A stretch of DNA of 14,600 bases from a virus, in UHGV virus genome UHGV-0201016; one strand, written 5' to 3'. Shown in pieces: positions 1,555 to 14,600 of this stretch. The notes under the pieces are model-generated. The model made no database searches. It saw nothing but the letters and a program-made list of their open reading frames with translations, and was not told the origin of the DNA. Each line of letters starts with the position of its first letter. Positions within the stretch are counted from its first letter, which is position 1. The translations under genes and the position numbers were made by a program.

Positions 1555-1674
1555 CCGAGCCTCCGGTCACGACGTGGTATTCGGTACAGAAAGACGCCTG
1601 CGTACTGTTGAGCACGATACCCGTTCTGGTCGGGTGAACTGTTCAACCGGGGACGCGCCAGCGCCGCCGAACGT

Positions 1675-2514
1675 GTGGAAATCGACGTCAGTCATAACGC
1701 CCTTGCCGGTGGTCTTCTCTGTGCGGACGGCCAGTGGCGGCAGATTGTCACCATTGAGGACGCCCTGAAAGGCGGCTGCACACTGTTCGACATTGAGCAG
1801 CTCAAACGTGAAAACAGCGCCGACGATTTTAAAAACCTGTTCATGTGTGAATTTGTTGACGACAAGGCGTCGGTGTTCCCGTTCGAGGAGCTGCAACGCT
1901 GCATGGTCGACACGCTGGAAGAATGGGAAGACTATGCGCCGTTTGCCGCGAATCCGTTCGGCTCCCGCCCGGTATGGATTGGTTACGACCCGTCACACCG
2001 TGGCGACAGTGCCGGATGCGTGGTGCTGGCACCGCCGGTGGTGGCCGGTGGCAAATTCAGAATACTTGAGCGTCACCAGTGGAAAGGCATGGACTTTGCC
2101 ACCCAGGCGGAATCCATCCGCAAACTCACCGAAAAATATAACGTTGAATACATCGGTATTGATGCCACCGGCCTCGGTGTCGGCGTGTTCCAGCTCGTGC
2201 GCTCGTTCTATCCCGCCGCGCGCGACATCCGCTACACGCCGGAAATGAAAACCGCAATGGTGCTCAAGGCAAAAGACGTTATCCGCCGTGGCTGTCTGGA
2301 ATATGACGTCAGCGCCACCGACATCACCAGCTCGTTTATGGCTATCCGCAAGACCATGACCAGCAGCGGACGCAGCGCCACCTATGAGGCCAGCCGCAGC
2401 GAGGAAGCCAGCCACGCCGACCTCGCCTGGGCGACCATGCACGCCCTGTTAAATGAGCCACTCACCGCCGGTATCAGCACCCCGCTGACATCCACCATTC
2501 TGGAGTTTTACTGA
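1675..2514 (+). pseudogene. P: Terminase large (ATPase/nuclease) subunit, P2 gpP-like, 3' fragment only; 5' part deleted
   Basis: The frame opens only after the stop at 1609-1611 and the first start codon is GTG at 1675, giving at most ~300 codons against a recalled ~590 for gpP. The fragment contains a nuclease-like region (PVWIGYDPSHRGDSAGCVV). Its stop overlaps the portal start (TGATG, 2512-2516). The upstream space is occupied by gpI on the other strand. Confidence 0.7.
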
Positions 2515-3548
2515 TGAGCAAGAAAAAAGGGAAAACACCGCAACCTGCGGCAAAAACAATGACCGCCAGCGCCCCGAAAATGGAGGCATTCACCTTTGGT
2601 GAGCCGGTGCCGGTACTCGACCGCCGTGACATTCTGGATTACGTCGAGTGCATCAGTAACGGCAGATGGTATGAGCCGCCGGTCAGCTTTACCGGTCTGG
2701 CAAAAAGCCTGCGTGCTGCCGTGCATCACAGCTCACCGATTTACGTTAAACGTAATATTCTGGCTTCAACGTTTATCCCGCACCCGTTGCTTTCCCAGCA
2801 GGATTTCAGCCGCTTTGTGCTGGATTTTCTGGTGTTCGGTAATGCGTTTCTGGAAAAGCGCTACAGCACCACCGGTAAGGTCATCAGACTGGAAACCTCA
2901 CCGGCAAAATATACCCGTCGTGGCGTGGAAGAGGATGTTTACTGGTGGGTGCCGTCCTTCAACGAGCCGGCAGCCTTCGCGCCCGGCTCCGTGTTTCACC
3001 TGCTGGAGCCCGATATTAATCAGGAGCTGTACGGCCTGCCGGAATATCTCAGCGCCCTTAACTCTGCCTGGCTGAATGAATCGGCCACGCTGTTCCGCCG
3101 CAAGTATTACGAAAACGGCGCACATGCCGGATACATCATGTACGTCACCGATGCCGTGCAGGATCGCAACGATATCGAAATGCTTCGCGAAAACATGGTT
3201 AAGTCGAAAGGCCGCAACAACTTTAAAAACCTGTTTCTCTATGCCCCGCAGGGGAAAGCCGACGGCATTAAAATTATCCCGCTCAGTGAAGTGGCAACGA
3301 AGGACGATTTTTTTAATATCAAAAAAGCCAGCGCCGCTGACCTGCTGGACGCGCACCGCATCCCCTTTCAGTTGATGGGAGGCAAGCCGGAGAACGTCGG
3401 GTCGCTGGGTGATATTGAGAAAGTGGCAAAGGTCTTTGTCCGCAATGAGCTTATCCCGCTACAGGACAGGATCCGCGAGATAAACGGCTGGCTCGGTCAG
3501 GAGGTCATCCGCTTTAAAAACTACTCACTGGACACTGACAACGGCTGA
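2514..3548 (+). CDS. Q: Phage portal (capsid vertex) protein, P2 gpQ-like (344 aa)
   Basis: Complete ORF translationally coupled to the terminase fragment; basic Lys-rich N-terminus; length and position (last gene before cos, about 170 bp from the cohesive-end sequence) match P2 Q. Confidence 0.85.
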   Translation: MSKKKGKTPQPAAKTMTASAPKMEAFTFGEPVPVLDRRDILDYVECISNGRWYEPPVSFTGLAKSLRAAVHHSSPIYVKRNILASTFIPHPLLSQQDFSRFVLDFLVFGNAFLEKRYSTTGKVIRLETSPAKYTRRGVEEDVYWWVPSFNEPAAFAPGSVFHLLEPDINQELYGLPEYLSALNSAWLNESATLFRRKYYENGAHAGYIMYVTDAVQDRNDIEMLRENMVKSKGRNNFKNLFLYAPQGKADGIKIIPLSEVATKDDFFNIKKASAADLLDAHRIPFQLMGGKPENVGSLGDIEKVAKVFVRNELIPLQDRIREINGWLGQEVIRFKNYSLDTDNG

Positions 3549-3553
3549 ACATC

Positions 3554-3575
3554 GCCGCCTGCGGGCGGCTTTTTT
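3554..3575 (+). terminator. Rho-independent terminator downstream of the portal gene
   Basis: GCCGCC (3554-3559), loop TGCG, GGCGGC (3564-3569), followed by TTTTTT (3570-3575). Confidence 0.55.
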
Positions 3576-3717
3576 ACGCCCCCGTCATCACGCCCTCACA
3601 CGCTCATCACCGCACAAAAAATCCCGCAGACACACCAACGCCCAGCAGGCCAAGTAAACGCCTTCACGACGCGCTCAGACGCTGAAAAAATAAAATCAGC
3701 ACCACCGCCAGCGCGCA

Positions 3718-3736
3718 GTGCTTTCCCCGCCTCGCC
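3718..3736. other. cos cohesive-end sequence, P2 type (19 nt)
   Basis: gtgctttccccgcctcgcc is the reverse complement of GGCGAGGCGGGGAAAGCAC, the 19-nt P2 cohesive end as I recall it. It lies between the portal gene and the cargo operon, as in P2 (Q - cos - old). Confidence 0.7.
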
Positions 3737-3865
3737 CGCCCGCTTCATGGGTCGATTTTAATGCAGTTGCATTTTTATCGAAAGTCTCGTCTCACAAAAC
3801 CCTCCCTTCACTAAATAGACTCATTATCCACATGCAATCTAATTCAAAAAAATGCATGTATAGTA

Positions 3866-5836
3866 TTAAAGGTCATCAATTAAACCTAAAGGCAAACCGT
3901 CCTCACCAACCGAGCTATAATGAGCGATAATATTCGAAAGTTCACCAGTAGAAAACGAATTAGGCAAATCATTATCAACTAATATAATCTGGCACGGAAC
4001 ATTTTTTCTTTCTGCTTTTTGAACTGTATTCAATAGTTGTTCATAAATATTTTGATACTTCATCGGATCTGACATTCCCTCAAGGTCATCCTCGACTGCA
4101 AGAGTTTCTTTTGAATATTTTTCCTTGGTCTGTTTCCCTAAATATTTGCCAACCGTATCAAATATCAAAAGTAAAGGATGGTTAACATTATGATCTATTG
4201 CATAATCAAGAATAGACAAAAGATACCCAATAGAAGAAATAGTTCTCAAACCTCCGGATGTTATTTTAAAATATTCTTTTTCTCTTATAACAGGAATGTA
4301 ATAGCTTTCAGAGATTTTTATCCCCGTTCTGTTTTTGATATTAATACCCTTCAAATACTGACTAAATCTATCACCCAAACCTTGTAAAATGCCCTCCATG
4401 CTAGGTGCGTTTTTCTTTAACGCCTCCAAGCGTTCAGTTAATGCTTCAATATCTTTTCTCAGTACCTGATACTTTTCAAGCAGTTCCTCTTGCTGGTTTC
4501 TAACCTTCAAATCTTTTACTAACTGCTCCCTAACCTTCTCATTTTTTGATATCTCTTTAATATAAAAATCTCTCTGAGTCAAGAATGGTGTAATCATTGA
4601 CTGGCTTTCTTCGTCAATCAATTCTCTCAACTCGTGAAGTCGTTCATCTAATTCTTTTTTATAACCTGATTCTTTTTTTAATTTAAATGACATTTCTGAG
4701 ATCATGTCATTAATATTTCGTCTACGTCGACTAAGTGAATTCAACTCTTCATTAAGATCTTTTTCTGATGAAATTTCAAATGGAAAATCAGAATCATCTA
4801 TTTTAATGTGGCTATCACAGATTGGACAGGAAAATACTTCCTTATCCAATACACCAATGCGAGAATTTGCTGTTTTAATCGCTTTGAGTTTTTCAATATC
4901 ATTATCATAGTCATTTTTTAACCGCGAATATTTATCAATCTTATCCTCAAGCGCACTAATATTTAATATGCACTCTTTGTATTTAAGCGAAATAAAATTG
5001 TGAGCATCTTTAAATTCTGTATACTGTATGGAATCCGCTTTCATATTTTTATCGAGAGCAGACAAACCTGCAACAAGTTCTTCTAAAACAAGATCTATCC
5101 TATTAATCTCATCATCAATTGATTCAATTGTTTCATAGTCTGTATCGCGAAGAAATTCAGATATTATCTGATACTTCCTATTTAATTCCGTTACTAAACT
5201 ACTTTTTGCAGATATTTCACCTTGGAGTCTGGCGATGCTTTCATCCAACACATTGAACATGTATTTAAAAACTTCTTTCGTAAATGCGTAGCGGGACCAA
5301 TCACCCAATCGCAAGAAAGATTTACTACCAATATCATCCTGACTTACATAAACAAATTTATATATATTTCTAAAACTTAACCTGCGCATCTGTGAATGCG
5401 CTTTAGAAGGAGACACCTTAATTTCAATCTTTGGGAAATTAAGACTATCAAGTAAAAACTCCGAAAAAACACCATCAACATTTGATAATGGGCTATAATT
5501 AGGAGCGTATTTTTTCGGAAAATGTTTATGTAAATCATCAAACTTACAACGATAAACTTCTATTGCTTTTTTATGATCATAGATATCTCTTACGATTGTG
5601 AATACAGTATCATTGATCACTACTTCAAGAGCAGCATAGTTTACTGATGTTTTTATTTCATCTGCTAAATCTATAGAGCTAGCACCTAAAAGATAATTAA
5701 TAAACTCCAGAATGCTTGACTTACCTGTGTCAGAGTCTCCGTAGATAACATTGAGACCTTTATAAAAAGTAGTGACGTAGTTTTTACGAACACCAACAAG
5801 AATCAAACTATTGATATTGAGATATGATTTCATCAT
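3866..5836 (-). CDS. SMC/Rad50/RecN-like ABC ATPase with long central coiled coil and a CxxC motif (LmuB-like position)
   Basis: 656-aa ORF. Walker A GDSDTGKS (aa 33-40, nt 5717-5740); about 300 aa of heptad-like charged sequence; CPIC at aa 337-340 (nt 4817-4828) near the middle of that region; ABC-signature-like ITSGGLRT (about aa 523-530); Walker-B-like HPLLLIFDT (Asp560 followed by Thr, not Glu). N-terminus resembles RecN/RecF/SMC heads. Confidence 0.75.
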   Translation of the reverse strand: MMKSYLNINSLILVGVRKNYVTTFYKGLNVIYGDSDTGKSSILEFINYLLGASSIDLADEIKTSVNYAALEVVINDTVFTIVRDIYDHKKAIEVYRCKFDDLHKHFPKKYAPNYSPLSNVDGVFSEFLLDSLNFPKIEIKVSPSKAHSQMRRLSFRNIYKFVYVSQDDIGSKSFLRLGDWSRYAFTKEVFKYMFNVLDESIARLQGEISAKSSLVTELNRKYQIISEFLRDTDYETIESIDDEINRIDLVLEELVAGLSALDKNMKADSIQYTEFKDAHNFISLKYKECILNISALEDKIDKYSRLKNDYDNDIEKLKAIKTANSRIGVLDKEVFSCPICDSHIKIDDSDFPFEISSEKDLNEELNSLSRRRRNINDMISEMSFKLKKESGYKKELDERLHELRELIDEESQSMITPFLTQRDFYIKEISKNEKVREQLVKDLKVRNQQEELLEKYQVLRKDIEALTERLEALKKNAPSMEGILQGLGDRFSQYLKGINIKNRTGIKISESYYIPVIREKEYFKITSGGLRTISSIGYLLSILDYAIDHNVNHPLLLIFDTVGKYLGKQTKEKYSKETLAVEDDLEGMSDPMKYQNIYEQLLNTVQKAERKNVPCQIILVDNDLPNSFSTGELSNIIAHYSSVGEDGLPLGLIDDL

Positions 5837-6345
5837 TTCTCCTTGAAAACTTGATTTATAACAGAGTTTAACTTAGAGGTAGGCAATGCTTGTAGCGGTA
5901 ACAATGCTTCGGATAGTCGTTTTATTTCTTTAAAATATCCATCAGTCAATGAGCTAGCAAATTCCTTACCTTTTTCAGATAAAAATAATTTAACACTCTC
6001 ATTATTTTTTTTCTCAGCTGAGAGCAATCCCCGCAATGACATAATTTTTATAAGATATTTCACTTTGGAATTGTCGAATAAGATATCTACATTTGATGAA
6101 AAACTCTTTATTGTATAAGTTAACTGGGACTCGACACAAGCAGGCTTTTTCCCCGAAATTGTAAGAGCATAATCAATTTTTGATGGGTTTTTTATCAGAT
6201 ACATAAAAATTTGTATTTTATTAATATCTAATGATAACACTCCTTTTTTGCTATGAGATAATATAGATATAGCAATGGCAAGCATAGCAAAATTCAAGCT
6301 ATACTCTTCATCAAGAGGAATATACGGCAAGTTATTTTTCTTCAT
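5833..6345 (-). CDS. Small protein of unknown function (170 aa), middle gene of the three-gene operon (LmuC-like position)
   Basis: Complete ORF. Its start overlaps the stop of the hydrolase gene by 14 nt, and its TGA overlaps the ATG of the ATPase gene (ATGA at 5833-5836). No recognisable motif. Confidence 0.55.
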   Translation of the reverse strand: MKKNNLPYIPLDEEYSLNFAMLAIAISILSHSKKGVLSLDINKIQIFMYLIKNPSKIDYALTISGKKPACVESQLTYTIKSFSSNVDILFDNSKVKYLIKIMSLRGLLSAEKKNNESVKLFLSEKGKEFASSLTDGYFKEIKRLSEALLPLQALPTSKLNSVINQVFKEK

Positions 6346-7555
6346 GATTACCTCGCCGTAATTGCTCCAAAGTTTCTACGCTGGTTTCAGATGACCAGAC
6401 AATATCTCTATCATTTTTGTTAGCCAGTTGATGCAACATTCCTTTCTTATGTATCGTTTCTAAACTTTTTATAAGAGAATCTAACGACGACTTATCCTCT
6501 TGGGCTATTCGTCTATGAACAGCAGCAATAAATTTATCTGGGGAAATTGAATTCGCGATATATTGCTCATACTCTTCCTGGTAAATCTCCCTTATTTTAG
6601 AATACAAATGACCAAGTAGTTTCCTATCGTAATCACTCGTAAAAATATTTCTCGCAAGCTCAGCATTATAATAATATTCCTTTGCATGCATAGCGATATC
6701 CTGATGTATATCTGCGACAATCATTTTTAAGACGAAATACTCATTATCATATTGTTTCTCATCAGAAAAACGCTCAACACATATCTTCTTGGGTGCTTCT
6801 AAATTTATCTGCTGAATAAATTGCTTTACCGCAACAAACACTGTAGACGAGCTGTTTTCGGGCTTGCAAATTGAGCTATGCCCTTCATTAACTGCAATTG
6901 AGTTATTTCGTTCACTATCCATCGGTAATGCGCTTTTTTTATCAACTATAGTGTCATGAGAACCATAAACATATCTAGTGATAGGAAGTTTTTTGCTACA
7001 ATTTATCCAGCGCCTATTCAATGTATCAGTCGCTTCACTTAACAATCCAAGATCTACTAACTGAGCATTTGAAGATACCATTGAAGTTATATTCGCCAAT
7101 TTAGCACCAAAGTGAGGGACTGCTAACGAAATGAATCCAATTATATTAGATTGTTCCTCATGCTCAACTTTTTTTAGAATTAGATTTTTTGATATTAACC
7201 CCCCCATACTATGGGCAATTATTATAATTCGAGAGTAATCACTTAACGTTACCCTAATCTCAGTATACAATAACTCAGCTATTTCATCAGTTGGTAAATT
7301 TCTCTCTAACTTATTTTTCTTAGAGAAAATACGAGCCAATAATCCTGACGTTTTAGCATACGTTTGTGTAAATTTGGTGAAATAGTTGAAACATGCAATA
7401 TCAAATACATTGCCAATGTCTTCATCTTCTGCTAATAGTTTTGGAAATGAAGTTTCTTTATTAAAGTTCCATGTTTCCAAACCACCATTTAATCCATGTA
7501 CAAATAGTATCAGGCTATCTTTTTTCTCGTGGCTTATCCATTCAACCATGCTCAT
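6332..7555 (-). CDS. Alpha/beta-hydrolase (lipase/esterase-type) fusion protein with a C-terminal all-helical domain of unknown function; candidate effector of the defence operon (LmuA-like position)
   Basis: 407-aa ORF. LILFVHGLNGG (HG oxyanion region); nucleophile elbow IIIIAHSMGGL with the Ser codon at 7208-7210; candidate acid GSHDTIVD; candidate His NEGHSSICK. Residues ~250-407 are charged and helical with no catalytic motif I recognise. AT-rich codon usage. Its last 14 nt overlap the next gene. Confidence 0.7.
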   Translation of the reverse strand: MSMVEWISHEKKDSLILFVHGLNGGLETWNFNKETSFPKLLAEDEDIGNVFDIACFNYFTKFTQTYAKTSGLLARIFSKKNKLERNLPTDEIAELLYTEIRVTLSDYSRIIIIAHSMGGLISKNLILKKVEHEEQSNIIGFISLAVPHFGAKLANITSMVSSNAQLVDLGLLSEATDTLNRRWINCSKKLPITRYVYGSHDTIVDKKSALPMDSERNNSIAVNEGHSSICKPENSSSTVFVAVKQFIQQINLEAPKKICVERFSDEKQYDNEYFVLKMIVADIHQDIAMHAKEYYYNAELARNIFTSDYDRKLLGHLYSKIREIYQEEYEQYIANSISPDKFIAAVHRRIAQEDKSSLDSLIKSLETIHKKGMLHQLANKNDRDIVWSSETSVETLEQLRRGNHEEK

Positions 7556-7603
7556 ATGCTTTTCTGCCGTGTATAAAAATTAAACCATAACAAACAATTC
7601 CTC

Positions 7604-7620
7604 AACAATAACATATTGTT
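7604..7620. promoter_or_regulatory. Inverted repeat AACAATA-N3-TATTGTT in the AT-rich intergenic region upstream of the cargo operon
   Basis: Perfect 7-bp arms with a 3-bp spacer, 50-65 bp upstream of the operon start (7555) and just downstream of the A stop; all-AT stem, so more likely a protein-binding site than a terminator. Confidence 0.3.
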
Positions 7621-7644
7621 ACCCCGTTTGACCGTTCTTTTCAA

Positions 7645-9927
7645 CTACCACTCACGCTGTCTGTCAAAAAAGTCGATATCGTTATCAAATTTAAAACGCT
7701 TATGCCCAAAATCCAAAACAGCTCCGCGAGCGAGAGCTTCAAGCTCCCAATAACTAGCCTGAATGTCACTTTGTGCAAGAAGAACCTTAATTTTCGGGAT
7801 AGTCTTTCTCTCCTGTCTTGTCAACCGGGCGGATGGGGCAGGAAAGTAGCTTCGACCATTGAAAGGGGTAAAGCTCTGCTGTGAACGATTACTGCATTTC
7901 AGTTCATTACTCAATAAGTCTCTAAGTACCTTCATAATGCCTGGCTCGGTCCAACTTAGAATCCCTTCATCTATTAAATTTAACACCGCTGCAGCATGCT
8001 CAGTCGGTGTGGGTGCCGGTAACGAAGTATCACCACCGTTGAGCTTTCCACAGTTATTGACAGGACTCCGAGGCGCGGCGATGCCGCTTTTTAAAGTCAA
8101 AGGCTCAACGACCGGAACTTTCGGCACAATGCGCCAGTCCGTCGTTCTGGTGATATGAATATGACGCGCGCCGAGATGCGGCGCGTAAATGCCGACCACT
8201 CTCTCGACTTCTTCCTCGTACTCGTTAACTTCATCCGACGGGCTACGGGCGACTCTGACAGTCTGACAATCGCGCGGAACATTTGCCCCACCCTGCGCGC
8301 TGATATACAACGCAAAATCACCACTGTCTGCGGCGGCGCGTGCAGCCTCGACGCGCTCGTCAAACTCATCAGCAATGCTGACGCCGCGCGGCAATTTGCG
8401 TAGTTCACGGTAAGCCCCCATTGTCGGCAGGCCAACCGTTTTAAATTGCGGGATGCGCCACGTTGACGCCCATGCGGTAACAGCCGCTGCAGTGTCTTTC
8501 AGCGGCCTGCCGGTGTCGTTATCGAGCTGACCATCCAGTGCATAGCCGTCGATGTTTTTTGAAATGTATTTCGCGATATATCCCGCAGCACCGCCCCGGT
8601 TAAGGTGTTTTGCCTGAAAACGGTTTCGCGCGGCTCCTCTTTCGTCGCCATCCTCTTTGAGCGCATAGCGACGCATGATTTCGATAATCTGGTTACGCTG
8701 GCGTGAATTACAAAAAAGCATCATATGCCAGTGCGGCGTTCCGTCGTGGTGTGGCTCGACGACACGCAAACCGTAGACCTGTAAATCATTATCCTTGAAT
8801 GCCGTGCGCATCAGGCTCCAGATACGGCAGAGATAACGCTGCGCATCCTTTGGATTAAATGCCTCATCGTTCCAGCCGTGATTAAGCTGCACGGTTTTAC
8901 TTTCGCCTTTTCCTACCTGACGTGTCGGGTGATACTTTGACGGCGCGGTCAGCGTGATAAACATCCCCACATCACCCTCTGCAGCGGCGTAACGCTCAAT
9001 ACCGGCAATGGTGTTCATCAGCTCCATCCGGCGAATTTCAGGATTAGAAATACTGCCCATCACCTTACTGATAAGGTCGATGCGCTCGCCGGTTTCCCTG
9101 TTTTCAAGGTCACACGATTTAAGAAATTCCAGATTTGCCTGGCGGCGCGCACGCACATCACGAATGGCGTGTTTACTGGCATAAGGAGAACGGTCTTTAT
9201 TGACCTCCCCGACAGCTATTAGTAACGCTTCATGCCAGCGCATACGCTGGCCTTTAAGCTGATGAGTCCACCACTCATCGTTAAACAGACGGGCAATGGC
9301 AGAATATGCCTGCCTCGTGGTCATCTGCCCTTTACGGTATTTTTTCCAGTAGAGCGGGGAAATATTGAAAGCACGTGCAGCGCCAGCAACATGACCATAG
9401 AGGTGAGCCTGCGCCTCATCCGTAAACAGCGATTCTTTTTCGCCATGCGCATCCACCCAGGCATCGCTGAGTTCCTCATACATCATGAAAAGCTGCGATG
9501 AGATACGGGCAGCAAACTTTTTCAGCTCCTTGTCATTCATTCCCGGCAGGCGCGCATAGTGGTCACGCTCTGCCAGAAACAGTAACGACGCGTCGGTGTT
9601 CATTTCATGGCGCTGATTCACACGCTCAATGCGCGGCCATAAACGACGCTGAAAAGTGGATGTGAGGAAATAAAACCCGTGCACCGGGCTTTTATTGCGC
9701 CGGATGTAGTCATAGCGTGAAGTAAACAGCGAGCGCAAAAAGTAAGGCAGGCGGTTAATCGTGGATAAAACACCTTGCACCTGATGCATCTCGTCACGTG
9801 TAAGGGGTCTTTCGCGCCCGACGGCCTCGCGTGGCGCGTTCCATGCATAAGCACCGGTAAACGCCTTACCGGTGCCTGCAGCAAATGCTGACGGAGGGAC
9901 AAAACGCCCGGAGGCTTTAACGGCCAT
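7645..9927 (-). CDS. A: Replication initiation protein, P2 gpA-like HUH rolling-circle endonuclease (761 aa from ATG at 9927)
   Basis: HUH motif PHWHMMLF and tyrosine motif GYIAKYISK are visible. The track ORF begins at TTG 9969; the first ATG is at 9927, giving 761 aa, the recalled length of P2 A. Confidence 0.85.
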   Translation of the reverse strand: MAVKASGRFVPPSAFAAGTGKAFTGAYAWNAPREAVGRERPLTRDEMHQVQGVLSTINRLPYFLRSLFTSRYDYIRRNKSPVHGFYFLTSTFQRRLWPRIERVNQRHEMNTDASLLFLAERDHYARLPGMNDKELKKFAARISSQLFMMYEELSDAWVDAHGEKESLFTDEAQAHLYGHVAGAARAFNISPLYWKKYRKGQMTTRQAYSAIARLFNDEWWTHQLKGQRMRWHEALLIAVGEVNKDRSPYASKHAIRDVRARRQANLEFLKSCDLENRETGERIDLISKVMGSISNPEIRRMELMNTIAGIERYAAAEGDVGMFITLTAPSKYHPTRQVGKGESKTVQLNHGWNDEAFNPKDAQRYLCRIWSLMRTAFKDNDLQVYGLRVVEPHHDGTPHWHMMLFCNSRQRNQIIEIMRRYALKEDGDERGAARNRFQAKHLNRGGAAGYIAKYISKNIDGYALDGQLDNDTGRPLKDTAAAVTAWASTWRIPQFKTVGLPTMGAYRELRKLPRGVSIADEFDERVEAARAAADSGDFALYISAQGGANVPRDCQTVRVARSPSDEVNEYEEEVERVVGIYAPHLGARHIHITRTTDWRIVPKVPVVEPLTLKSGIAAPRSPVNNCGKLNGGDTSLPAPTPTEHAAAVLNLIDEGILSWTEPGIMKVLRDLLSNELKCSNRSQQSFTPFNGRSYFPAPSARLTRQERKTIPKIKVLLAQSDIQASYWELEALARGAVLDFGHKRFKFDNDIDFFDRQREW

Positions 9928-10192
9928 ATGAGCCAAAAGCCTCTGAACAACGCCTGCTGAGTTGCTCAACCTGCGCGTTTAAATCAGCAAAAGACTTTGC
10001 GCTTCCGGTCAGAATATCGTGATGCATCAGGCCGGAAACGAGCTGGCTTAATTTCGGATAATAACCAACCACCGCCAGCCATTCCTGACCGGCGTTTTTA
10101 CCGCTTTCCGCTCTCTTTTTCTCGTGGAGAATAAACTGAAAGCTGTCACTGGTAACGACATAACGTTCGCCAATTTCAATACGAATACTCAT
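9917..10192 (-). CDS. Hypothetical early protein (P2 orf83-like position)
   Basis: 91-aa ORF in the chain of start/stop-overlapping genes between B and A; no motif recognised. Confidence 0.55.
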   Translation of the reverse strand: MSIRIEIGERYVVTSDSFQFILHEKKRAESGKNAGQEWLAVVGYYPKLSQLVSGLMHHDILTGSAKSFADLNAQVEQLSRRCSEAFGSYGR

Positions 10193-10413
10193 GCCGTTCT
10201 CCGGTAATGTTTGTTTTTTGCTTCAAAGACTGACTGGCAGGAAACACAACGCGTGGCTGACGGATAAGCCGCACGACGGGCAGCAGGTATTGGCGCGTCA
10301 CACTCTTCGCAAACCAGCGCAGAAGCACCGCAATGTTTTACCCTTGCCGCGTTAATCTGACGCTCCAGTAATTCAGCCTGTTGTTCCTGAATAAAATCTA
10401 CGTTGTCCGGCAT
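10189..10413 (-). CDS. TraR/DksA-family C4 zinc-finger protein (P2 orf82-like position)
   Basis: 74 aa with CEEC-x17-CVSC (Cys-x2-Cys-x17-Cys-x2-Cys) and a preceding helical segment, as in F-plasmid TraR. Confidence 0.75.
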   Translation of the reverse strand: MPDNVDFIQEQQAELLERQINAARVKHCGASALVCEECDAPIPAARRAAYPSATRCVSCQSVFEAKNKHYRRTA

Positions 10414-10718
10414 TACCAGCTCCTTTTGTCGTTAAGTTTTTTAAATTCATCAGCGCAATAGCTAGCAATTTCTGTCGTTAATTTCGTCAGTTCATCCACG
10501 GAGGAGATTTGCTTGTGAAATACAGCGCGTTTAACAAGTAAATTGACCACATCAGACAGGAGATTTAATTCGTTCTGATAAATCGCGATAACAGACTCAG
10601 TTATTTCGCGTTTTTCTTTATCAAGACCAAGTTGAATAAGAGATAAATCGCCATTTTTCATAACAGCGATTTTTAAGGCGTTATTCAGTAATACAACTGG
10701 ATGAGAACAGGACATCAA
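10413..10718 (-). CDS. Hypothetical early protein (P2 orf81-like position)
   Basis: 101-aa ORF; stop overlaps the next start; no motif recognised. Confidence 0.55.
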
Positions 10719-10939
10719 AGCACCTCCCCGCGAGATAATCCGATATTGTGAAATTTTTCCGACTCCTGACTGAGCAGCTCGACTATCTCCACGCGGGATA
10801 ACTCCGCCTTTGTGATGTGGCGAATCATGGCGTCAAGATGAGAAGAAAAGCGCGTCGCTGCGTCGGCCTGTGCTTCGGTTCTGGCCTGTTGCAGCAGTAA
10901 TGCGTATTTACCGCACTGATTTTCAGAAACTGTATGCAT
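10715..10939 (-). CDS. Hypothetical early protein (P2 orf80-like position)
   Basis: 74-aa ORF with ATG at 10939 and 4-nt overlap with the downstream gene. Confidence 0.55.
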
Positions 10940-11002
10940 GACTTTCTCCAGGCAAAAAGAAGCCCCGCACGATTAAGTGCGTTAAAAACTCTGGTTAATT
11001 AC

Positions 11003-11503
11003 TTAATGCAGATATTGCTCTGGTTTTACCGACGTCAGAATTGTCGGTGCATACTCAAACAGACTGAATAATTCACGTAACGCACGGAATAAAGCATCAC
11101 GCCAGTAACATGACTCTTCATTAATTCGCCAGTATGGCTGGTTGAATTCTTTTTCAGTCAATCCGGCATGCATAAATAAAGTACGGCGCTGACTGACAGT
11201 TAAAAAGCTAATATATGCATACTCACTTGCACCGACCTGACGGCGTTTTGAGAATGCCCCACGCAGTTCATCAATTGCACAAACCAGCCGTTCACGTTCG
11301 ACGTCGTTCATTTCTTCAAAACGCATCGTTGCGTGACGCTGTTTTAACTGCGCATGGAAGCAAACCGTTAGCCGTTCACGTTCCATCATCTGATTATAAT
11401 AATCGCATGTATCCTGCCAGCGAGGGACGGCCAGATGCTTACCAATTATCCGGCGCATAGCTGCTGGCTGTTTTTCAACAAGATTGAGCGTCATCACTGT
11501 CAT
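11003..11503 (-). CDS. B: Replication protein, P2 gpB-like (166 aa)
   Basis: Complete 166-aa ORF in the position and with the length of P2 B, between the orf78-like ORF and the small ORF cluster. Confidence 0.7.
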   Translation of the reverse strand: MTVMTLNLVEKQPAAMRRIIGKHLAVPRWQDTCDYYNQMMERERLTVCFHAQLKQRHATMRFEEMNDVERERLVCAIDELRGAFSKRRQVGASEYAYISFLTVSQRRTLFMHAGLTEKEFNQPYWRINEESCYWRDALFRALRELFSLFEYAPTILTSVKPEQYLH

Positions 11504-11736
11504 TTCCAGACCCTCCGGCTTTTCAGAAAGGTCAGAGCCTTATTTAACGGACTCTGTTTTTTGGTGCGGATAATGATTCCCTTACGCCCCTTACCGTGGG
11601 TAATGGTGAAGTCAATCGCCCTTGGGCTTTCGTTACGCAATAACTGAGCAATACAACGAGGCTCGTTCATCCTTTCCACCTTAAGCCGCACGGCCATGTC
11701 TTGATTTGCTGTAACTAATGCGATTTTTCCAGTCAT
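11500..11736 (-). CDS. Hypothetical protein (P2 orf78-like), start uncertain
   Basis: The track ORF starts at 11760; the internal Met at 11736 gives 78 aa and less overlap with the upstream gene; 4-nt overlap with the B start. Confidence 0.45.
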   Translation of the reverse strand: MTGKIALVTANQDMAVRLKVERMNEPRCIAQLLRNESPRAIDFTITHGKGRKGIIIRTKKQSPLNKALTFLKSRRVWK

Positions 11737-12037
11737 GCCATTCTGTCGGAGCTTCATCAACTAGCTGGGCTGCGTACTTGTCCCACTCACGGCGATTAAT
11801 CCATAACTCAGCATGACCGCCCGGCTTTAATGGGTCCGTCATATAAAAGGCTGGTAACTTGCCTGCTTTCGCCATTTCAGCAACAGCGCGAGGCGTCTTA
11901 CCGATGTAAAGAGCAAAACCCTCTTTCGAGAGCAAATCCGACGGTGCGGCTGCAAGTTTGATGTCACATTTTTTACTTTTTGTGAGATCAGATACTTTTT
12001 CTCCAACATCGTTATTCATTTCTGATCCAATACTCAT
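11681..12037 (-). CDS. cox: Cox-like excisionase / early-promoter regulator (HTH), start uncertain
   Basis: HTH-like segment FALYIGKTPRAVAEMAKAGKLPAFYMTDP resembles the P2 Cox / 186 Apl family. The track start is TTG at 12067; ATG at 12037 has GAGG 8 nt upstream. Confidence 0.6.
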   Translation of the reverse strand: MSIGSEMNNDVGEKVSDLTKSKKCDIKLAAAPSDLLSKEGFALYIGKTPRAVAEMAKAGKLPAFYMTDPLKPGGHAELWINRREWDKYAAQLVDEAPTEWHDWKNRISYSKSRHGRAA

Positions 12038-12141
12038 TTTGATATCCTCAACTTTGGTGCCATTCAACCAGAGCTATTTGAAGCCGCTCTGCGTTGTTCT
12101 GGTGTGTCGCATACAACATAAATTACGAGATACGACAATTC
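12038..12141. promoter_or_regulatory. Immunity switch region between divergent cox-like and C-repressor genes (expected site of early and repressor promoters and operators)
   Basis: 104-bp intergenic region between divergent regulators. Only weak sigma70-like hexamers (for example TTGTTC-N17-CATAAA toward C) could be picked out by eye; no element is resolved. Confidence 0.35.
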
Positions 12142-12453
12142 ATGTCAAATACACAAATCACATCTCAAGCAGAGAAACTCGCACTTATTCGGGAATCAGA
12201 AAGAATGACAAGGAAGCAAGTTGCTGAATTAACTGGAATTAACTACAACACCTATGCTGGATATGAGCAGGGAAAAGTAAAGATGTCTTTTGACGCAGGT
12301 ATGAAATTTTTCAAGCCAGAAAGATTTCGCAAGTACCGTGACTGGTTCATGTTTGATGAAACTGATCCCGCTGGCGGACAAATAGCCCCGGCGCTCGCGC
12401 ACATTGGGCAAGACTCAACAACCTTGCACCACTCAGACCAAAAGACTGGCTGA
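12142..12453 (+). CDS. C: Immunity repressor, P2 C-type (Xre-like HTH), 103 aa
   Basis: HTH segment RKQVAELTGINYNTYAGYEQGK. The track start at 12094 is TTG; the first ATG (12142) gives about 100 aa, as for P2 C. It lies upstream of and co-oriented with int, as in P2. Confidence 0.75.
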   Translation: MSNTQITSQAEKLALIRESERMTRKQVAELTGINYNTYAGYEQGKVKMSFDAGMKFFKPERFRKYRDWFMFDETDPAGGQIAPALAHIGQDSTTLHHSDQKTG

Positions 12454-12546
12454 CGATTTATTCAGCATATGTGTGCAGTAAATGTACGAAAGAAAATTGC
12501 ATTAATTTTCAAGTAGTAGAAGTAAACAGCGTCATCGGAGGGCTTT

Positions 12547-13542
12547 ATGTCTATTAAAAAGCTCGATGATGGTCGTTATGAAGTGGACGTCAGACCGCAG
12601 GGTGCAGATGGAAAACGTATCAGGCGGAAATTTAAAACTAAAGGTGAAGCTCAAGCATTCGAACGTCATGTGCTGGTTAACTACCACAACAAAGAGTGGC
12701 TGGAGAAGCCAGCCGACCGCCGAACTCTTACAGAGTTGTTAGGCAGATGGTGGATATATCACGGAAAATCACATGAGCGTGGAAATATTGAACGGGGGCG
12801 TTTGACGACAATAATCGCCAAATTTGCAGAAATGGGAGTGTCCAGAGCTGACCAGTTAACAAAGAAAACGATAACTGATTATCGAGTTGTAATGATGAAC
12901 GATGGTCTAAAACCAGCCAGCGTAAATCGGCATCTGGCAATAATGAGCGGGATGTTCACCAAGTTAATTGACGCCGGTGAATACCACTCTCACAACCCGT
13001 TCCGTGAGGTTAAGCGGTTACGTGAAGCTGTTACAGAAATGGCTTTTTTGTCCAGTGAAGAGATTACGCGGCTGTTATCCATGCTTGATGGTGATGAGTT
13101 AAATGCAACTCTGGTCTGCCTTTCTACTGGTGGACGCTGGAGTGAAGTGTCTAATTTGAAAGCTGAACACATCATTAACCAGATGGTTACGTTTATGAAA
13201 ACTAAAAACGGAAAGCGCAGGACAATTCCCGTTTCGCAGGACCTGATTAAAAGGATCAAGACCAAAAATTCAGGCAGGCTTTTTAATGCCAGTTACTACA
13301 AAGTGCGTAACGCTCTCAGGGAAGTAAAACCCGATTTACCTGACGGACAAGCAGTACATGTTTTGAGGCATACATTTGCCACACATTTTATAATGAATGG
13401 AGGTAACATAATCACATTGCAGCGCATCCTGGGTCATTCTAACATTCAGCAAACTATGACCTACGCACACTTTGCACCGGATTTCTTACAAGATGCTGTG
13501 ACTCTTAACCCGGTGTCAGGAATGTCCATAATGCGTCCATAA
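12547..13542 (+). CDS. int: Tyrosine integrase, P2 Int family (331 aa)
   Basis: GGAGGG lies 5 nt upstream of the ATG. Catalytic-box motifs HVLRHTFATHF and TMTYAHF are present; the N-terminus MSIKKLDDGRYEVDVRP is typical of P2/186 integrases. Confidence 0.9.
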   Translation: MSIKKLDDGRYEVDVRPQGADGKRIRRKFKTKGEAQAFERHVLVNYHNKEWLEKPADRRTLTELLGRWWIYHGKSHERGNIERGRLTTIIAKFAEMGVSRADQLTKKTITDYRVVMMNDGLKPASVNRHLAIMSGMFTKLIDAGEYHSHNPFREVKRLREAVTEMAFLSSEEITRLLSMLDGDELNATLVCLSTGGRWSEVSNLKAEHIINQMVTFMKTKNGKRRTIPVSQDLIKRIKTKNSGRLFNASYYKVRNALREVKPDLPDGQAVHVLRHTFATHFIMNGGNIITLQRILGHSNIQQTMTYAHFAPDFLQDAVTLNPVSGMSIMRP

Positions 13543-13630
13543 ACCAGAGTTAACTAGAGCCAATTGAAGCGATATGAGTAATTTAACTAATTGTAATACA
13601 ACAGAAAATACCGCTACGGCGGGGGCTACC
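13543..13630. other. attR junction region (phage/host boundary), core not resolved
   Basis: This 88-bp interval separates the int stop from the first codon with recognisable PflA homology. The P2 attP core is not present, so the element has a different site specificity. Confidence 0.35.
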
Positions 13631-14371
13631 AAGTCAGTTATTGGTCGCATTCACTCCTTTGAATCCTGTGGAACCGTAGACGGCCCAGGTATTCGCTTTA
13701 TCACCTTTTTCCAGGGCTGCCTGATGCGCTGCCTGTATTGTCATAACCGCGACACCTGGGACACGCATGGCGGTAAAGAAGTTACCGTTGAAGATTTGAT
13801 GAAGGAAGTGGTGACCTATCGCCACTTTATGAACGCTTCCGGCGGCGGCGTTACCGCATCCGGCGGTGAAGCAATCCTGCAAGCTGAGTTTGTTCGTGAC
13901 TGGTTCCGCGCCTGCAAAAAAGAAGGCATTCATACCTGTCTGGACACCAACGGTTTTGTTCGTCGTTACGATCCGGTGATTGATGAACTGCTGGAAGTAA
14001 CCGACCTGGTAATGCTCGATCTCAAACAGATGAACGACGAGATCCACCAAAATCTGGTTGGAGTTTCCAACCACCGCACGCTGGAGTTCGCTAAATATCT
14101 GGCGAACAAAAATGTGAAGGTGTGGATCCGCTACGTTGTTGTCCCAGGCTGGTCTGACGATGACGATTCAGCGCATCGCCTCGGTGAATTTACCCGTGAT
14201 ATGGGCAACGTTGAGAAAATCGAGCTTCTCCCCTACCACGAGCTGGGCAAACACAAATGGGTGGCAATGGGTGAAGAGTACAAACTCGACGGTGTTAAAC
14301 CACCGAAGAAAGAGACCATGGAACGCGTGAAAGGCATTCTTGAGCAGTACGGTCATAAGGTAATGTTCTAA
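13574..14371 (+). CDS. pflA: Pyruvate formate-lyase activating enzyme (glycyl-radical activase, radical SAM) with a 19-codon N-terminal extension; canonical start position is AAG
   Basis: CLMRCLYC radical-SAM cluster motif; residues 21-265 match E. coli PflA (246 aa, [14 protein letters not shown]...) as recalled. Codon 13631-13633 is AAG where ATG is expected, and the only in-frame start is ATG at 13574. Confidence 0.85.
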
Positions 14372-14383
14372 TTTCCCCGTAAA

Positions 14384-14413
14384 GCGGCAACTTTATTGAG
14401 TTGCCGCTTTTTT
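14384..14413 (+). terminator. Rho-independent terminator downstream of pflA
   Basis: GCGGCAAC (14384-14391), 8-nt loop, GTTGCCGC (14400-14407), then TTTTTT (14408-14413). Confidence 0.6.
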
Positions 14414-14452
14414 ATTCCGCGCTTCATTCTGCTACAGCGTTTTTAACACATC

Positions 14453-14600
14453 TTATAGTGCATCTACCATATCCCGTACCTGAGATAATAACGACTGATA
14501 ATAGCTCGCGTGAAGTTCTTCCCCATCGAATACCACTGTATTACACAAGAAAGTGACATCGGCATCTTCAATACCAAGATAACTGCACATATTTTTTAAA
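14453..14600 (-). CDS. 3' end (48 codons) of a host gene convergent with pflA; product not identified
   Basis: Minus-strand frame is open from the window end to the TAA at 14455-14453 (...NMCSYLGIEDADVTFLCNTVVFDGEELHASYYQSLLSQVRDMVDAL*); protein-like composition; start lies outside the window. Confidence 0.4.
   Translation of the reverse strand, partial: LKNMCSYLGIEDADVTFLCNTVVFDGEELHASYYQSLLSQVRDMVDAL

Follow-up and report, generated by a model that had tools for sequence, protein, structure and literature searches.

We report that the open reading frame at positions 3866-5836 of the window (the whole stretch of DNA that was analysed, 14,600 nucleotides of UHGV virus genome UHGV-0201016) is read from the minus strand, encodes a protein of 656 amino acids and is the final gene of a three-gene operon, lmuA-lmuC-lmuB. 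An earlier note on this DNA had the coordinates right and left the minus strand unstated. The genes and features at the locus are:

2514-3548, plus strand: P2 gpQ-type portal gene (TIGR01540 portal_PBSX, E = 6e-75), downstream boundary of the hotspot
3718-3736, minus strand: P2-type cos core GGCGAGGCGGGGAAAGCAC, exact match (0 expected by chance), in the interval between the portal gene and lmuB
3866-5836, minus strand: lmuB, a 656-aa Rad50/SMC-like ABC ATPase, very probably the sensor of a short (type II) Lamassu
5833-6345, minus strand: lmuC, a 170-aa ABC-3C middle component MC4
6332-7555, minus strand: lmuA, a 407-aa effector with an N-terminal alpha/beta-hydrolase and a C-terminal CTD8 (aa 265-389)
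7645-9969, minus strand: P2 gpA-type replication endonuclease gene (Pfam Phage_GPA, E = 3.5e-123), upstream boundary of the hotspot

The lmuA and lmuC genes overlap by 14 nt, and lmuC and lmuB by 4 nt (ATGA). LmuC matched the PADLOC LmuC model PDLC03869 (E = 4e-52) and Pfam PF20290 MC4 (E = 2e-26), while LmuA matched the PADLOC LmuA model PDLC03851 (E = 6e-109) together with Pfam CTD8 (1.5e-35), DUF676 (2e-9) and PGAP1. The LmuA hydrolase has a DUF676/PGAP1/LCAT-like lipase fold with the triad S116, D201 and H226, and none of these three residues varies among 51 orthologs with identities as low as 32%. Moreover, the order lmuA-lmuC-lmuB is kept in essentially all of the ~50 related loci with upstream DNA, which span Proteobacteria, Bacteroidota and Firmicutes. 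These loci were collected with the pattern 'DTVGKYL', so that the scan is not independent evidence for the Asp-Thr (D-T) pair discussed below; it was applied only to the operon, the effector and gene integrity. A promoter scan around the operon returned 15 sites, to be compared with 17 expected from shuffled sequence.

The operon is carried by a P2-like E. coli prophage, as cargo in the gpA-gpQ (old/tin) defence hotspot next to cos; we take GGCGAGGCGGGGAAAGCAC to be the P2 cohesive-end sequence. This hotspot of P2, between gpA and portal and proximal to cos, was defined in PMC9122126. The Lamassu island is low in GC (~32% vs ~50-57%). In RefSeq the gpA-type gene carries the label 'replication endonuclease' and the gpQ-type gene the label 'phage portal protein'.

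The earlier note had suspected that the open reading frame is an LmuB, and profile, operon and fold all agree with this. The PADLOC model PDLC03862 matched residues 2-656 of 656 (E = 5e-235), and 12 additional PADLOC LmuB models also match. An AlphaFold2 model of the protein (mean pLDDT 84.6, numbered one lower than the full-length protein) has a head-arm-turn-arm-head topology, and its best Foldseek matches are solved LmuB chains (9uxh_F, 2e-21; 9hqx_B, 5e-20; 9hqu_A, 4e-19), with Rad50 chains ranking after these. The solved chains belong to Salmonella enterica LmuACB (9hqu/9hqx) and to entries 9ny5, 9nyg, 9uxh and 9uxl, which are presumably Vibrio cholerae DdmABC/LmuACB. A PDB search with the single LmuB sequence gave a marginal match only (E = 0.19), and family profiles were needed for significant full-length alignments to PDB chains; with the LmuB family profile, the solved LmuB chains aligned at E = 5e-34 and 4e-19. 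Taken together, we assign the open reading frame with high confidence as the LmuB of a short (type II, ABC-3C) Lamassu that is cargo in a P2-like prophage hotspot.

For residue conservation we used a close set of 114 full-length LmuB homologs (identity down to 43%) and a wide set of 111 sequences, obtained by searching exhaustively with a profile and extending to ~19-20% identity with the query LmuB. The elements of the ATP site, all encoded on the minus strand, are:

5717-5740, minus strand: Walker A/P-loop GDSDTGKS (aa 33-40) with K39, Lys in 111 of 111 relatives
5333-5347, minus strand: putative Q-loop region VSQDD with Q166, assigned by position
4250-4261, minus strand: signature-like TSGG (aa 526-529), aligning to 'GSGS' of 9hqu
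4154-4174, minus strand: Walker B LLLIFDT (aa 555-561), D560 kept and T561 at the place of the catalytic Glu
3968-3991, minus strand: H-loop strand QIILVDND (aa 616-623), Asn622 vs the switch His of solved LmuBs

All four motifs named in the earlier note are found where it placed them (GDSDTGKS at 33-40, CPIC at 337-340, TSGG at 526-529 and LLLIFDT at 555-561), and they exceed chance by far. We infer the Q-loop from the position of VSQDD; Q166 is invariant in the close LmuB clade and Gln is present in 74 of the 111 wide-set sequences. S527 of the signature-like motif aligns with S536 of Salmonella LmuB, where the change S536R abolishes defence.

The Walker B motif was said in the earlier note to lack the catalytic Glu, and this holds across the family. 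D560 and T561 are invariant in 114/114 close homologs, and the Walker B Asp is present in 111/111 wide-set sequences, where the residue that follows is T in 54, S in 47, G in 6, N in 2 and A in 1. D-[T/S/G/N/A] therefore accounts for 110 of the 111, the remaining one being an alignment gap, and E, Q or D after the Walker B Asp occurs in none of these 111 diverse relatives. A canonical Walker B elsewhere in the C-terminal head, which by the earlier note would have refuted its reading, was ruled out: the C-terminal 200 aa are free of hhhhDE motifs in every one of the 111 relatives. In the profile alignment LLLIFDT pairs with FLILDQ of 9hqu and YIIYDQ of 9ny5/9uxl, so that T561 lies opposite the Walker B Gln of Salmonella LmuB. 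The short-Lamassu Walker B has been published as hhhhD[Q/S/T/E], and the canonical Walker A with deviant Walker B (D-T) seen here fits that description.

The QIILVDND strand presumably corresponds to the H-loop of Rad50. The family sequence 'QiIiVDN' aligns to 'QLIVLDH' of 9hqu and 'QIIVLDH' of 9uxl/9ny5 (profile alignment), and in the AlphaFold2 model a beta-strand stops right before Asn622. At position 622 the wide set has N in 98/111 and H in 4/111. The Walker B Glu is absent in the Salmonella and Vibrio LmuBs as well as here, but these combine D-Q with an H-loop His (LDH), whereas the clade studied here combines D-T with Asn (VDN). With T561 in place of Glu and Asn622 in place of His, both members of the usual catalytic pair are absent. 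The exchange of His for Asn622 at the H-loop is apparently undescribed so far, and provides a natural test case for hydrolysis vs mere ATP-driven head engagement in Lamassu activation.

The residues for Mg-ATP binding and head engagement are kept (K39/S40, Q166, S527-G529 and D560). Given that these are retained while T561 and N622 replace Glu and His, LmuB would be an ATP-gated switch with very slow turnover and not a motor, and activation might then be long-lived or effectively one-way. A dimerising sensor or clamp that binds ATP and hydrolyses it slowly, as proposed in the earlier note, fits published LmuBs, slow hydrolysis and zinc binding in the present protein being suggested by homology. 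An alternative with the same family assignment is that LmuBs of this clade only bind ATP, as a switch with zero hydrolysis and one-shot activation, which we consider possible but doubtful. Neither T561 nor N622 varies in the close clade and both prevail across the wider family, as might be expected for such a switch, and the solved D-Q LmuBs that have residual ATPase retain the H-loop His. Naturally degenerate sites of ABC transporters without both residues, e.g. CFTR NBD1, hold ATP stably and hydrolyse it little or not at all, and this analogy also speaks for it. However, other LmuBs with a deviant Walker B do hydrolyse ATP slowly (about 1 per minute for Salmonella LmuACB with DNA), hydrolysis appears to aid activation in published LmuBs, where ATP-gamma-S is no substitute, and D621 and D623, the acidic neighbours of N622 that are invariant in the close clade, could assist catalysis. 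We therefore keep slow turnover as the preferred reading and propose only tentatively that the hydrolase-associated LmuB clade without Glu and His either does not hydrolyse ATP or has relocated the catalytic base to D621/D623. Were this so, nature would here provide a homodimeric ABC protein with both sites 'degenerate', and Lamassu sensing would need only ATP-dependent head engagement, which would answer a question that the authors of the Salmonella LmuACB study expressly left open.

Between the two halves of the head, the AlphaFold2 model places the following, again encoded on the minus strand:

4859-5242, minus strand: predicted outgoing coiled-coil arm (aa ~199-326), made of three helices that are interrupted near 231-236 and 264-269
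4766-4858, minus strand: predicted apical hook region (aa 327-357), non-helical, lower pLDDT (~57-67)
4817-4828, minus strand: CPIC (aa 337-340), Rad50-type zinc-hook CxxC, one per protomer
4409-4765, minus strand: predicted return coiled-coil arm (aa ~358-476), a single long helix

The arms comprise about 128 and 119 residues, and CPIC lies between two short strands in the non-helical turn 327-357 that joins them. The CxxC is thus in the middle of the coiled coil, as the earlier note had it, and not in a globular region. C337, P338 and C340 are invariant in 114/114 close homologs, CPxC is present in 111/111 diverse relatives, and CPIC aligns with the hook CPMC of Salmonella LmuB 9hqu. The predicted secondary-structure topology and the alignment to a solved LmuB support CPIC as the likely apex of an antiparallel coiled coil. 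A canonical SMC protein (Smc, MukB, JetC), for which a globular hinge domain that mediates dimerisation and kleisin and KITE/HAWK partners are characteristic, was also considered and rejected, the apex here being a 31-residue turn with CxxC; TIGR02168/02169 gave 17-24 bits against cut-offs of 567-729. A CxxC hook is present in many, not all, LmuB clades. Both odd features of the protein, i.e. the deviant Walker B including D-T and the zinc hook, are already in the literature for LmuB and are published hallmarks of it, so that the finding is correct but ordinary and these features are not new.

The CxxC could also form an intramolecular zinc knuckle or other structural element, dimerisation then relying on coiled-coil and LmuC contacts. 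A second CxxC 13-24 residues downstream in 66 of the 111 relatives, which would allow a four-Cys site within each chain, the Vibrio LmuB that lacks a zinc hook and still forms a B2 dimer, and the zinc density, which is unresolved in both cryo-EM studies of LmuB, would be in keeping with this. We find it unlikely: the LmuB studied here and its whole close clade have a single CxxC and no other conserved Cys/His nearby (H343 is variable), and with one CxxC per chain two chains are needed for tetrahedral coordination, as in Rad50. Moreover, the cryo-EM structures show the two protomers with their hook motifs side by side, and the zinc hook is needed for defence in Salmonella LmuACB, where its mutation abolishes defence.

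A protein sequence identical to this LmuB is present in the public records (WP_249508809.1). Names in use there are 'exonuclease SbcC', 'double-stranded DNA repair protein Rad50', 'AAA family ATPase' and 'DUF342'. The practical value of the assignment is hence one of annotation, as a Lamassu abortive-infection sensor stands behind misnamed records. That the names are right and the protein is a true SbcC/Rad50 DNA-repair ATPase is extremely improbable. It does resemble Rad50/SbcC, a proposed DNA-end sensor: in both, an antiparallel coiled coil divides the ABC head and carries a CxxC hook at its apex. Rad50 chains are also among the fold matches, and SbcCD has been proposed as the ancestor of Lamassu. 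But Rad50/SbcC has Walker B D-E and an H-loop His where this protein has D-T and Asn622, far longer coiled coils (only ~130 residues per arm here), and an obligatory Mre11/SbcD partner as part of chromosomal housekeeping, whereas this LmuB is mobile cargo, in a low-GC cassette within a prophage hotspot. No adjacent Mre11/SbcD gene or metallophosphatase match was detected, the neighbours being LmuC, LmuA, gpA and the portal gene. The NCBIfam models NF003034 (Rad50) and NF041034 scored 23.5 and 21.2 bits (cut-offs 700 and 1000), Pfam SMC_N scored 23.1 bits (cut-off 40), and the LmuB HMMs score vastly better. The partner genes, the curated score cut-offs and the residues of the active site accordingly led us to reject the 'SbcC/Rad50' label.

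Short Lamassu systems with a lipase/hydrolase LmuA ('Lamassu' in DefenseFinder and PADLOC; 'Ec-Lipase', Clade H, PMC12663957) have the same lmuA-lmuC-lmuB operon, an LmuB of ~650 aa with a short coiled coil, CxxC hook and hhhhD[Q/S/T/E], an LmuA with an N-terminal lipase-like hydrolase and a C-terminal docking domain, and a small LmuC, all of which is true here. Ec-Lipase, a related Lamassu of E. coli that has a zinc hook, protects against lambda-vir, for which both the Walker A Lys (LmuB K42) and the lipase His (LmuA H215) are required. These residue numbers disagree with K39 and H226 here; Ec-Lipase is probably a sister of the present system and not the identical one. The ABC-3C systems were defined by Krishnan et al. 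2020. The Salmonella LmuACB and Vibrio chains share fold and domain order with this LmuB (Foldseek E 2e-21 to 2e-16) at a sequence identity of about 15%; they work with a Cap4 nuclease as effector and have CTD7/MC3-type partners, whereas the effector here is a serine hydrolase with CTD8/MC4.

Lamassu systems give defence against phages or plasmids by abortive infection that depends on the ATPase and the effector. By analogy with these systems, one zinc coordinated by four Cys, two per chain, would link two LmuB protomers at their apices, and LmuC and the LmuA C-terminal domain would dock on the hook-proximal coils, keeping one LmuA monomer sequestered. ATP-dependent head engagement might then clamp LmuB on the DNA of an invading phage, at its ends or at replication intermediates, whereupon LmuA would be released, oligomerise and direct its hydrolase at a cellular target, probably membrane lipid, with cell death before phage release, i.e. 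abortive infection. Sequestration, release and oligomerisation are established for nuclease-type LmuA, and these steps may differ for a hydrolase effector.

The prophage in the window is without head and lysis genes and appears to carry a large internal deletion, which makes the expression context of the cassette uncertain. One could argue from these losses that the cassette is inert cargo of a decaying prophage and that the odd active site reflects relaxed selection. The homologous cassette from E. coli REL606, cloned in 2022 as pFR106 ('Hydrolase + SMC'), is absent from the P2-hotspot systems reported active against an eight-phage panel, and lmuB is disrupted in about 4 of the ~50 related loci, both in line with this argument. 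Nevertheless, inert cargo is very unlikely: T561, N622, CPxC and the LmuA triad are invariant over 55-65% divergence, contrary to what drift would give. Moreover, the ORFs of this locus are intact and overlap, 96 complete E. coli genomes carry an intact cassette (full-length prophages and O157:H7 strains among these), and the related lipase-type system is active. As to the possible frameshift in relatives against which the earlier note had cautioned, lmuB is intact in 45 of the ~50 informative related loci and also in RefSeq E. coli genomes. We regard the cassette as a putative defence system.

Finally, old and tin of P2 occupy the same cos-proximal gpA-gpQ hotspot and exclude competing phages. 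OLD is a single chain of ATPase and TOPRIM nuclease without a coiled-coil hook or three components, and is unrelated to Lamassu, yet shares with it the combination of an ABC ATPase as sensor and an effector.

The motifs that the earlier note had read in LmuB, the Rad50/SMC-like ATPase and sensor subunit of a Lamassu system, are all in place: GDSDTGKS (residues 33-40), CPIC (337-340), TSGG (526-529) and LLLIFDT (555-561). LmuB is matched by a PADLOC model over residues 2-656 (E=5e-235) and its exact sequence is on record as WP_249508809.1. Its gene is the final one of three co-directional genes, which overlap by 14 nt and 4 nt and form an island of ~32% G+C between flanks of 50-57%. The public database names for this protein are misleading. 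Entries in its 90% cluster carry labels as varied as 'exonuclease SbcC', 'AAA family ATPase', 'DUF342 domain-containing protein' and 'Rad50', and RefSeq lists the partners as ABC-three component system proteins and does not apply the name Lamassu to the system. The features of the cassette and its borders are as follows.

3866-5836, minus strand: lmuB open reading frame, 656 codons
LmuA, 407 aa: PADLOC E=6e-109; Pfam N-terminal DUF676/PGAP1/LCAT-type alpha/beta-hydrolase and ABC-3C C-terminal domain CTD8
LmuC, 170 aa: PADLOC E=4e-52; Pfam ABC-3C middle component MC4
Upstream flank of the cassette: P2-type gpA replication endonuclease
Downstream flank of the cassette: P2-type portal and terminase genes
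3718-3736, minus strand: exact copy of GGCGAGGCGGGGAAAGCAC, located ~130 nt past the lmuB stop, with the portal gene on its other side
3552-3569, plus strand: strong hairpin resembling a terminator (GCCGCC-TGCG-GGCGGC, then TTTTTT), immediately past the portal gene at the hotspot edge

The gene order lmuA-lmuC-lmuB is conserved in Proteobacteria, Bacteroidota and Firmicutes, and only Scandinavium, the closest locus outside E. coli (87% identity), has the P2 context in common. Among 51 LmuA orthologs with identity down to 32% the triad Ser116-Asp201-His226 is invariant and the HG motif is kept wherever it can be aligned.

Residues C337, P338, C340, D560 and T561 are invariant in 114 full-length homologs (identity down to 43%), as are 'DTVGKYL' around D560-T561 and a later 'VDND'. 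When 1.84 billion representatives were searched exhaustively with a profile, 3249 relatives emerged; 110 full-length representatives and the query, reaching about 19-20% identity, were used for conservation. All 111 of these sequences have the Lys of Walker A, the two cysteines of the hook and the Asp of Walker B. Directly after this Asp stands T (54), S (47), G (6), N (2) or A (1), with no E, D or Q at this position in any of the 111. Family profiles aligned significantly and over the full length with 9hqu/9hqx of Salmonella LmuACB (E=2e-11, then 5e-34) and with 9ny5/9uxl (E about 4e-19), which we take to be Vibrio LmuB; the PDB titles say just 'DUF3732' and 'type II Lamassu'. These alignments place CPIC opposite the hook CPMC of 9hqu, the D-T of LmuB opposite D-Q of both solved proteins, and S527 opposite the signature Ser at which the mutation S536R abolishes defence. 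There is no sign of a true Walker B with DE at another site: none of the 111 sequences has an hhhhDE motif in its C-terminal 200 residues, and D-T aligns to D-Q; the claim of a Walker B without the catalytic Glu thus holds.

Both solved LmuB types retain the H-loop (switch) histidine, reading 'LDH' in a broader profile alignment. LmuB here has Asn622 in 'VDND' (residues 620-623; window 3968-3979), with flanking Asp residues that are invariant in the clade, and the position is Asn in 98 and His in just 4 of the 111 relatives. By comparison with the Rad50 sequence, position 622 is presumably the Rad50 H-loop equivalent; that a strand ends just ahead of 622 in the AlphaFold2 model also supports this assignment. 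LmuB thus lacks the Glu and the His of the usual ABC catalytic pair, having T561 and Asn622 in their place, and keeps the residues for Mg-ATP binding and head engagement. Neither the main text of any of the structure papers nor the other literature searched was found to discuss the LmuB H-loop.

The AlphaFold2 model of LmuB, built on 70 homologs (mean pLDDT 84.6), runs from an N-terminal half-head through an outgoing arm of three helices (about 199-326, full-length numbering), a turn and a return arm of a single long helix (358-476) to a C-terminal half-head. The turn (327-357; 31 residues) is modelled as non-helical with CPIC between two short strands, at moderate confidence (pLDDT about 57-67). 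As the arms are near-equal in length, about 128 and 119 residues, CPIC is predicted to lie at the fold-back point of the coiled coil and not in a globular region, in agreement with the mid-coiled-coil position proposed earlier. With Foldseek against the PDB the model retrieved Lamassu LmuB chains at the top (9uxh_F, 2e-21; 9hqx_B, 9hqu_A, 9nyg_B and 9ux7_A), followed by Rad50.

One CxxC is present in 45 of the 111 relatives, mostly with D-T as here, and in 66 a second CxxC lies 13-24 residues downstream of the first, mostly with D-S. The two-CxxC relatives are the more distant ones. Two CxxC per chain could make an intramolecular four-Cys site instead of an intermolecular hook. CxxC copy numbers of zero, one or two have been mapped across the LmuB tree (PMC12663957).

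Many LmuB homologues have a zinc hook of the CPxCG-like type, and another residue generally stands in place of the Walker B Glu (PMC10586767, a 2023 review); the short-Lamassu consensus is hhhhD[Q/S/T/E] (PMC12663957). Salmonella LmuACB has a deviant Walker B, turns over about 1 ATP per minute with DNA and has its zinc-hook motifs juxtaposed; its defence needs the hook, ATP binding and head engagement. In a third structural study the distal tip of Bacillus LmuB bears a canonical CQYC hook, and ATPase activity is moderate despite a deviant Walker B. A hook-bearing, lipase-type E. coli Lamassu is active against lambda-vir, depending on both the Lys of Walker A and the lipase His (PMC12663957). 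The zinc hook and deviant Walker B are accordingly published hallmarks of a catalogued defence gene and already known; the H-loop Asn, with the question of hydrolysis dependence, is the sole forward-looking element.

The family, operon, architecture, motif conservation and genomic context of LmuB come from the present analysis, and the mechanism is drawn by analogy with characterised homologs. On that analogy the LmuB dimer would be held by a shared zinc at the apex, and one LmuA would be sequestered as LmuC and the C-terminal domain of LmuA dock close to the hook. ATP-dependent engagement of the heads on DNA ends or replication intermediates would release LmuA, which may then oligomerise, its lipase-like hydrolase killing the cell. 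Given T561 and N622, LmuB is expected to hydrolyse ATP very slowly or not at all and would therefore act as a switch. The interpretation of LmuB as a dimerising, slowly hydrolysing sensor or clamp is supported to this extent, by likeness to the solved systems.

The gene is not generally frameshifted in close relatives. In one-per-species loci lmuB is a single uninterrupted frame in 45, cut by a contig end in 6 and truly disrupted in about 4. The cassette is present at ≥80% query coverage in 96/5426 complete E. coli genomes, and its genes are annotated as intact in the records listed, e.g. in a complete P2-like prophage beside yegR in O157:H7 TW14359. Most short members of the 90% cluster bear the label 'partial' and resemble fragments cut at contig ends. 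In Hymenobacter antarcticus (L056:7029-7945) an insertion of about 0.9 kb splits lmuB at the hook (query residues about 335-347), and in an Alteromonadaceae MAG (L044:7281-8513) one of about 1.2 kb splits it within the return arm.

We take GGCGAGGCGGGGAAAGCAC to be the 19-nt P2 cohesive-end (cos) core; with this copy at 3718-3736 the cassette directly adjoins cos, as described for P2/P4 hotspots. The gpA-gpQ locus is a P2 defence hotspot, and the tables of the same study (PMC9122126) include WP_000063136, the LmuA of the TW14359 cassette, and the construct pFR106 ('Hydrolase + SMC'), three genes of E. coli REL606. Over 90 nt the pFR106 insert is identical to window 3809-3898, and its primer corresponds to sequence upstream of lmuA. 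The text names three other P2-hotspot systems as active, so pFR106 presumably gave no defence on the eight-phage panel. The hairpin at 3552-3569 is also found at the start of the published insert.

The intact TW14359 prophage is colinear (98.3%) with window 1618-11684, which begins mid terminase ATPase gene, and 1-1619 aligns at 100% with tail-fibre, tail protein I and baseplate genes. The block for capsid, lysis and tail completion is absent from the window, with the breakpoint at about 1618, and none of 5426 complete E. coli genomes has the same junction. The P2-like prophage appears to be internally deleted or rearranged, and the junction either marks a defective prophage specific to the strain or is a join made in assembly. 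The other end carries the following genes.

11681-12067: Cox
12094-12453: HTH repressor
12547-13542: integrase
13574-14371: host radical-SAM gene, after the integrase

Since this immunity and integration module (11684-14600) is 65-70% identical to that of the TW14359 prophage and the remainder 98%, the comparison suggests that the prophage is mosaic and has another attachment site.
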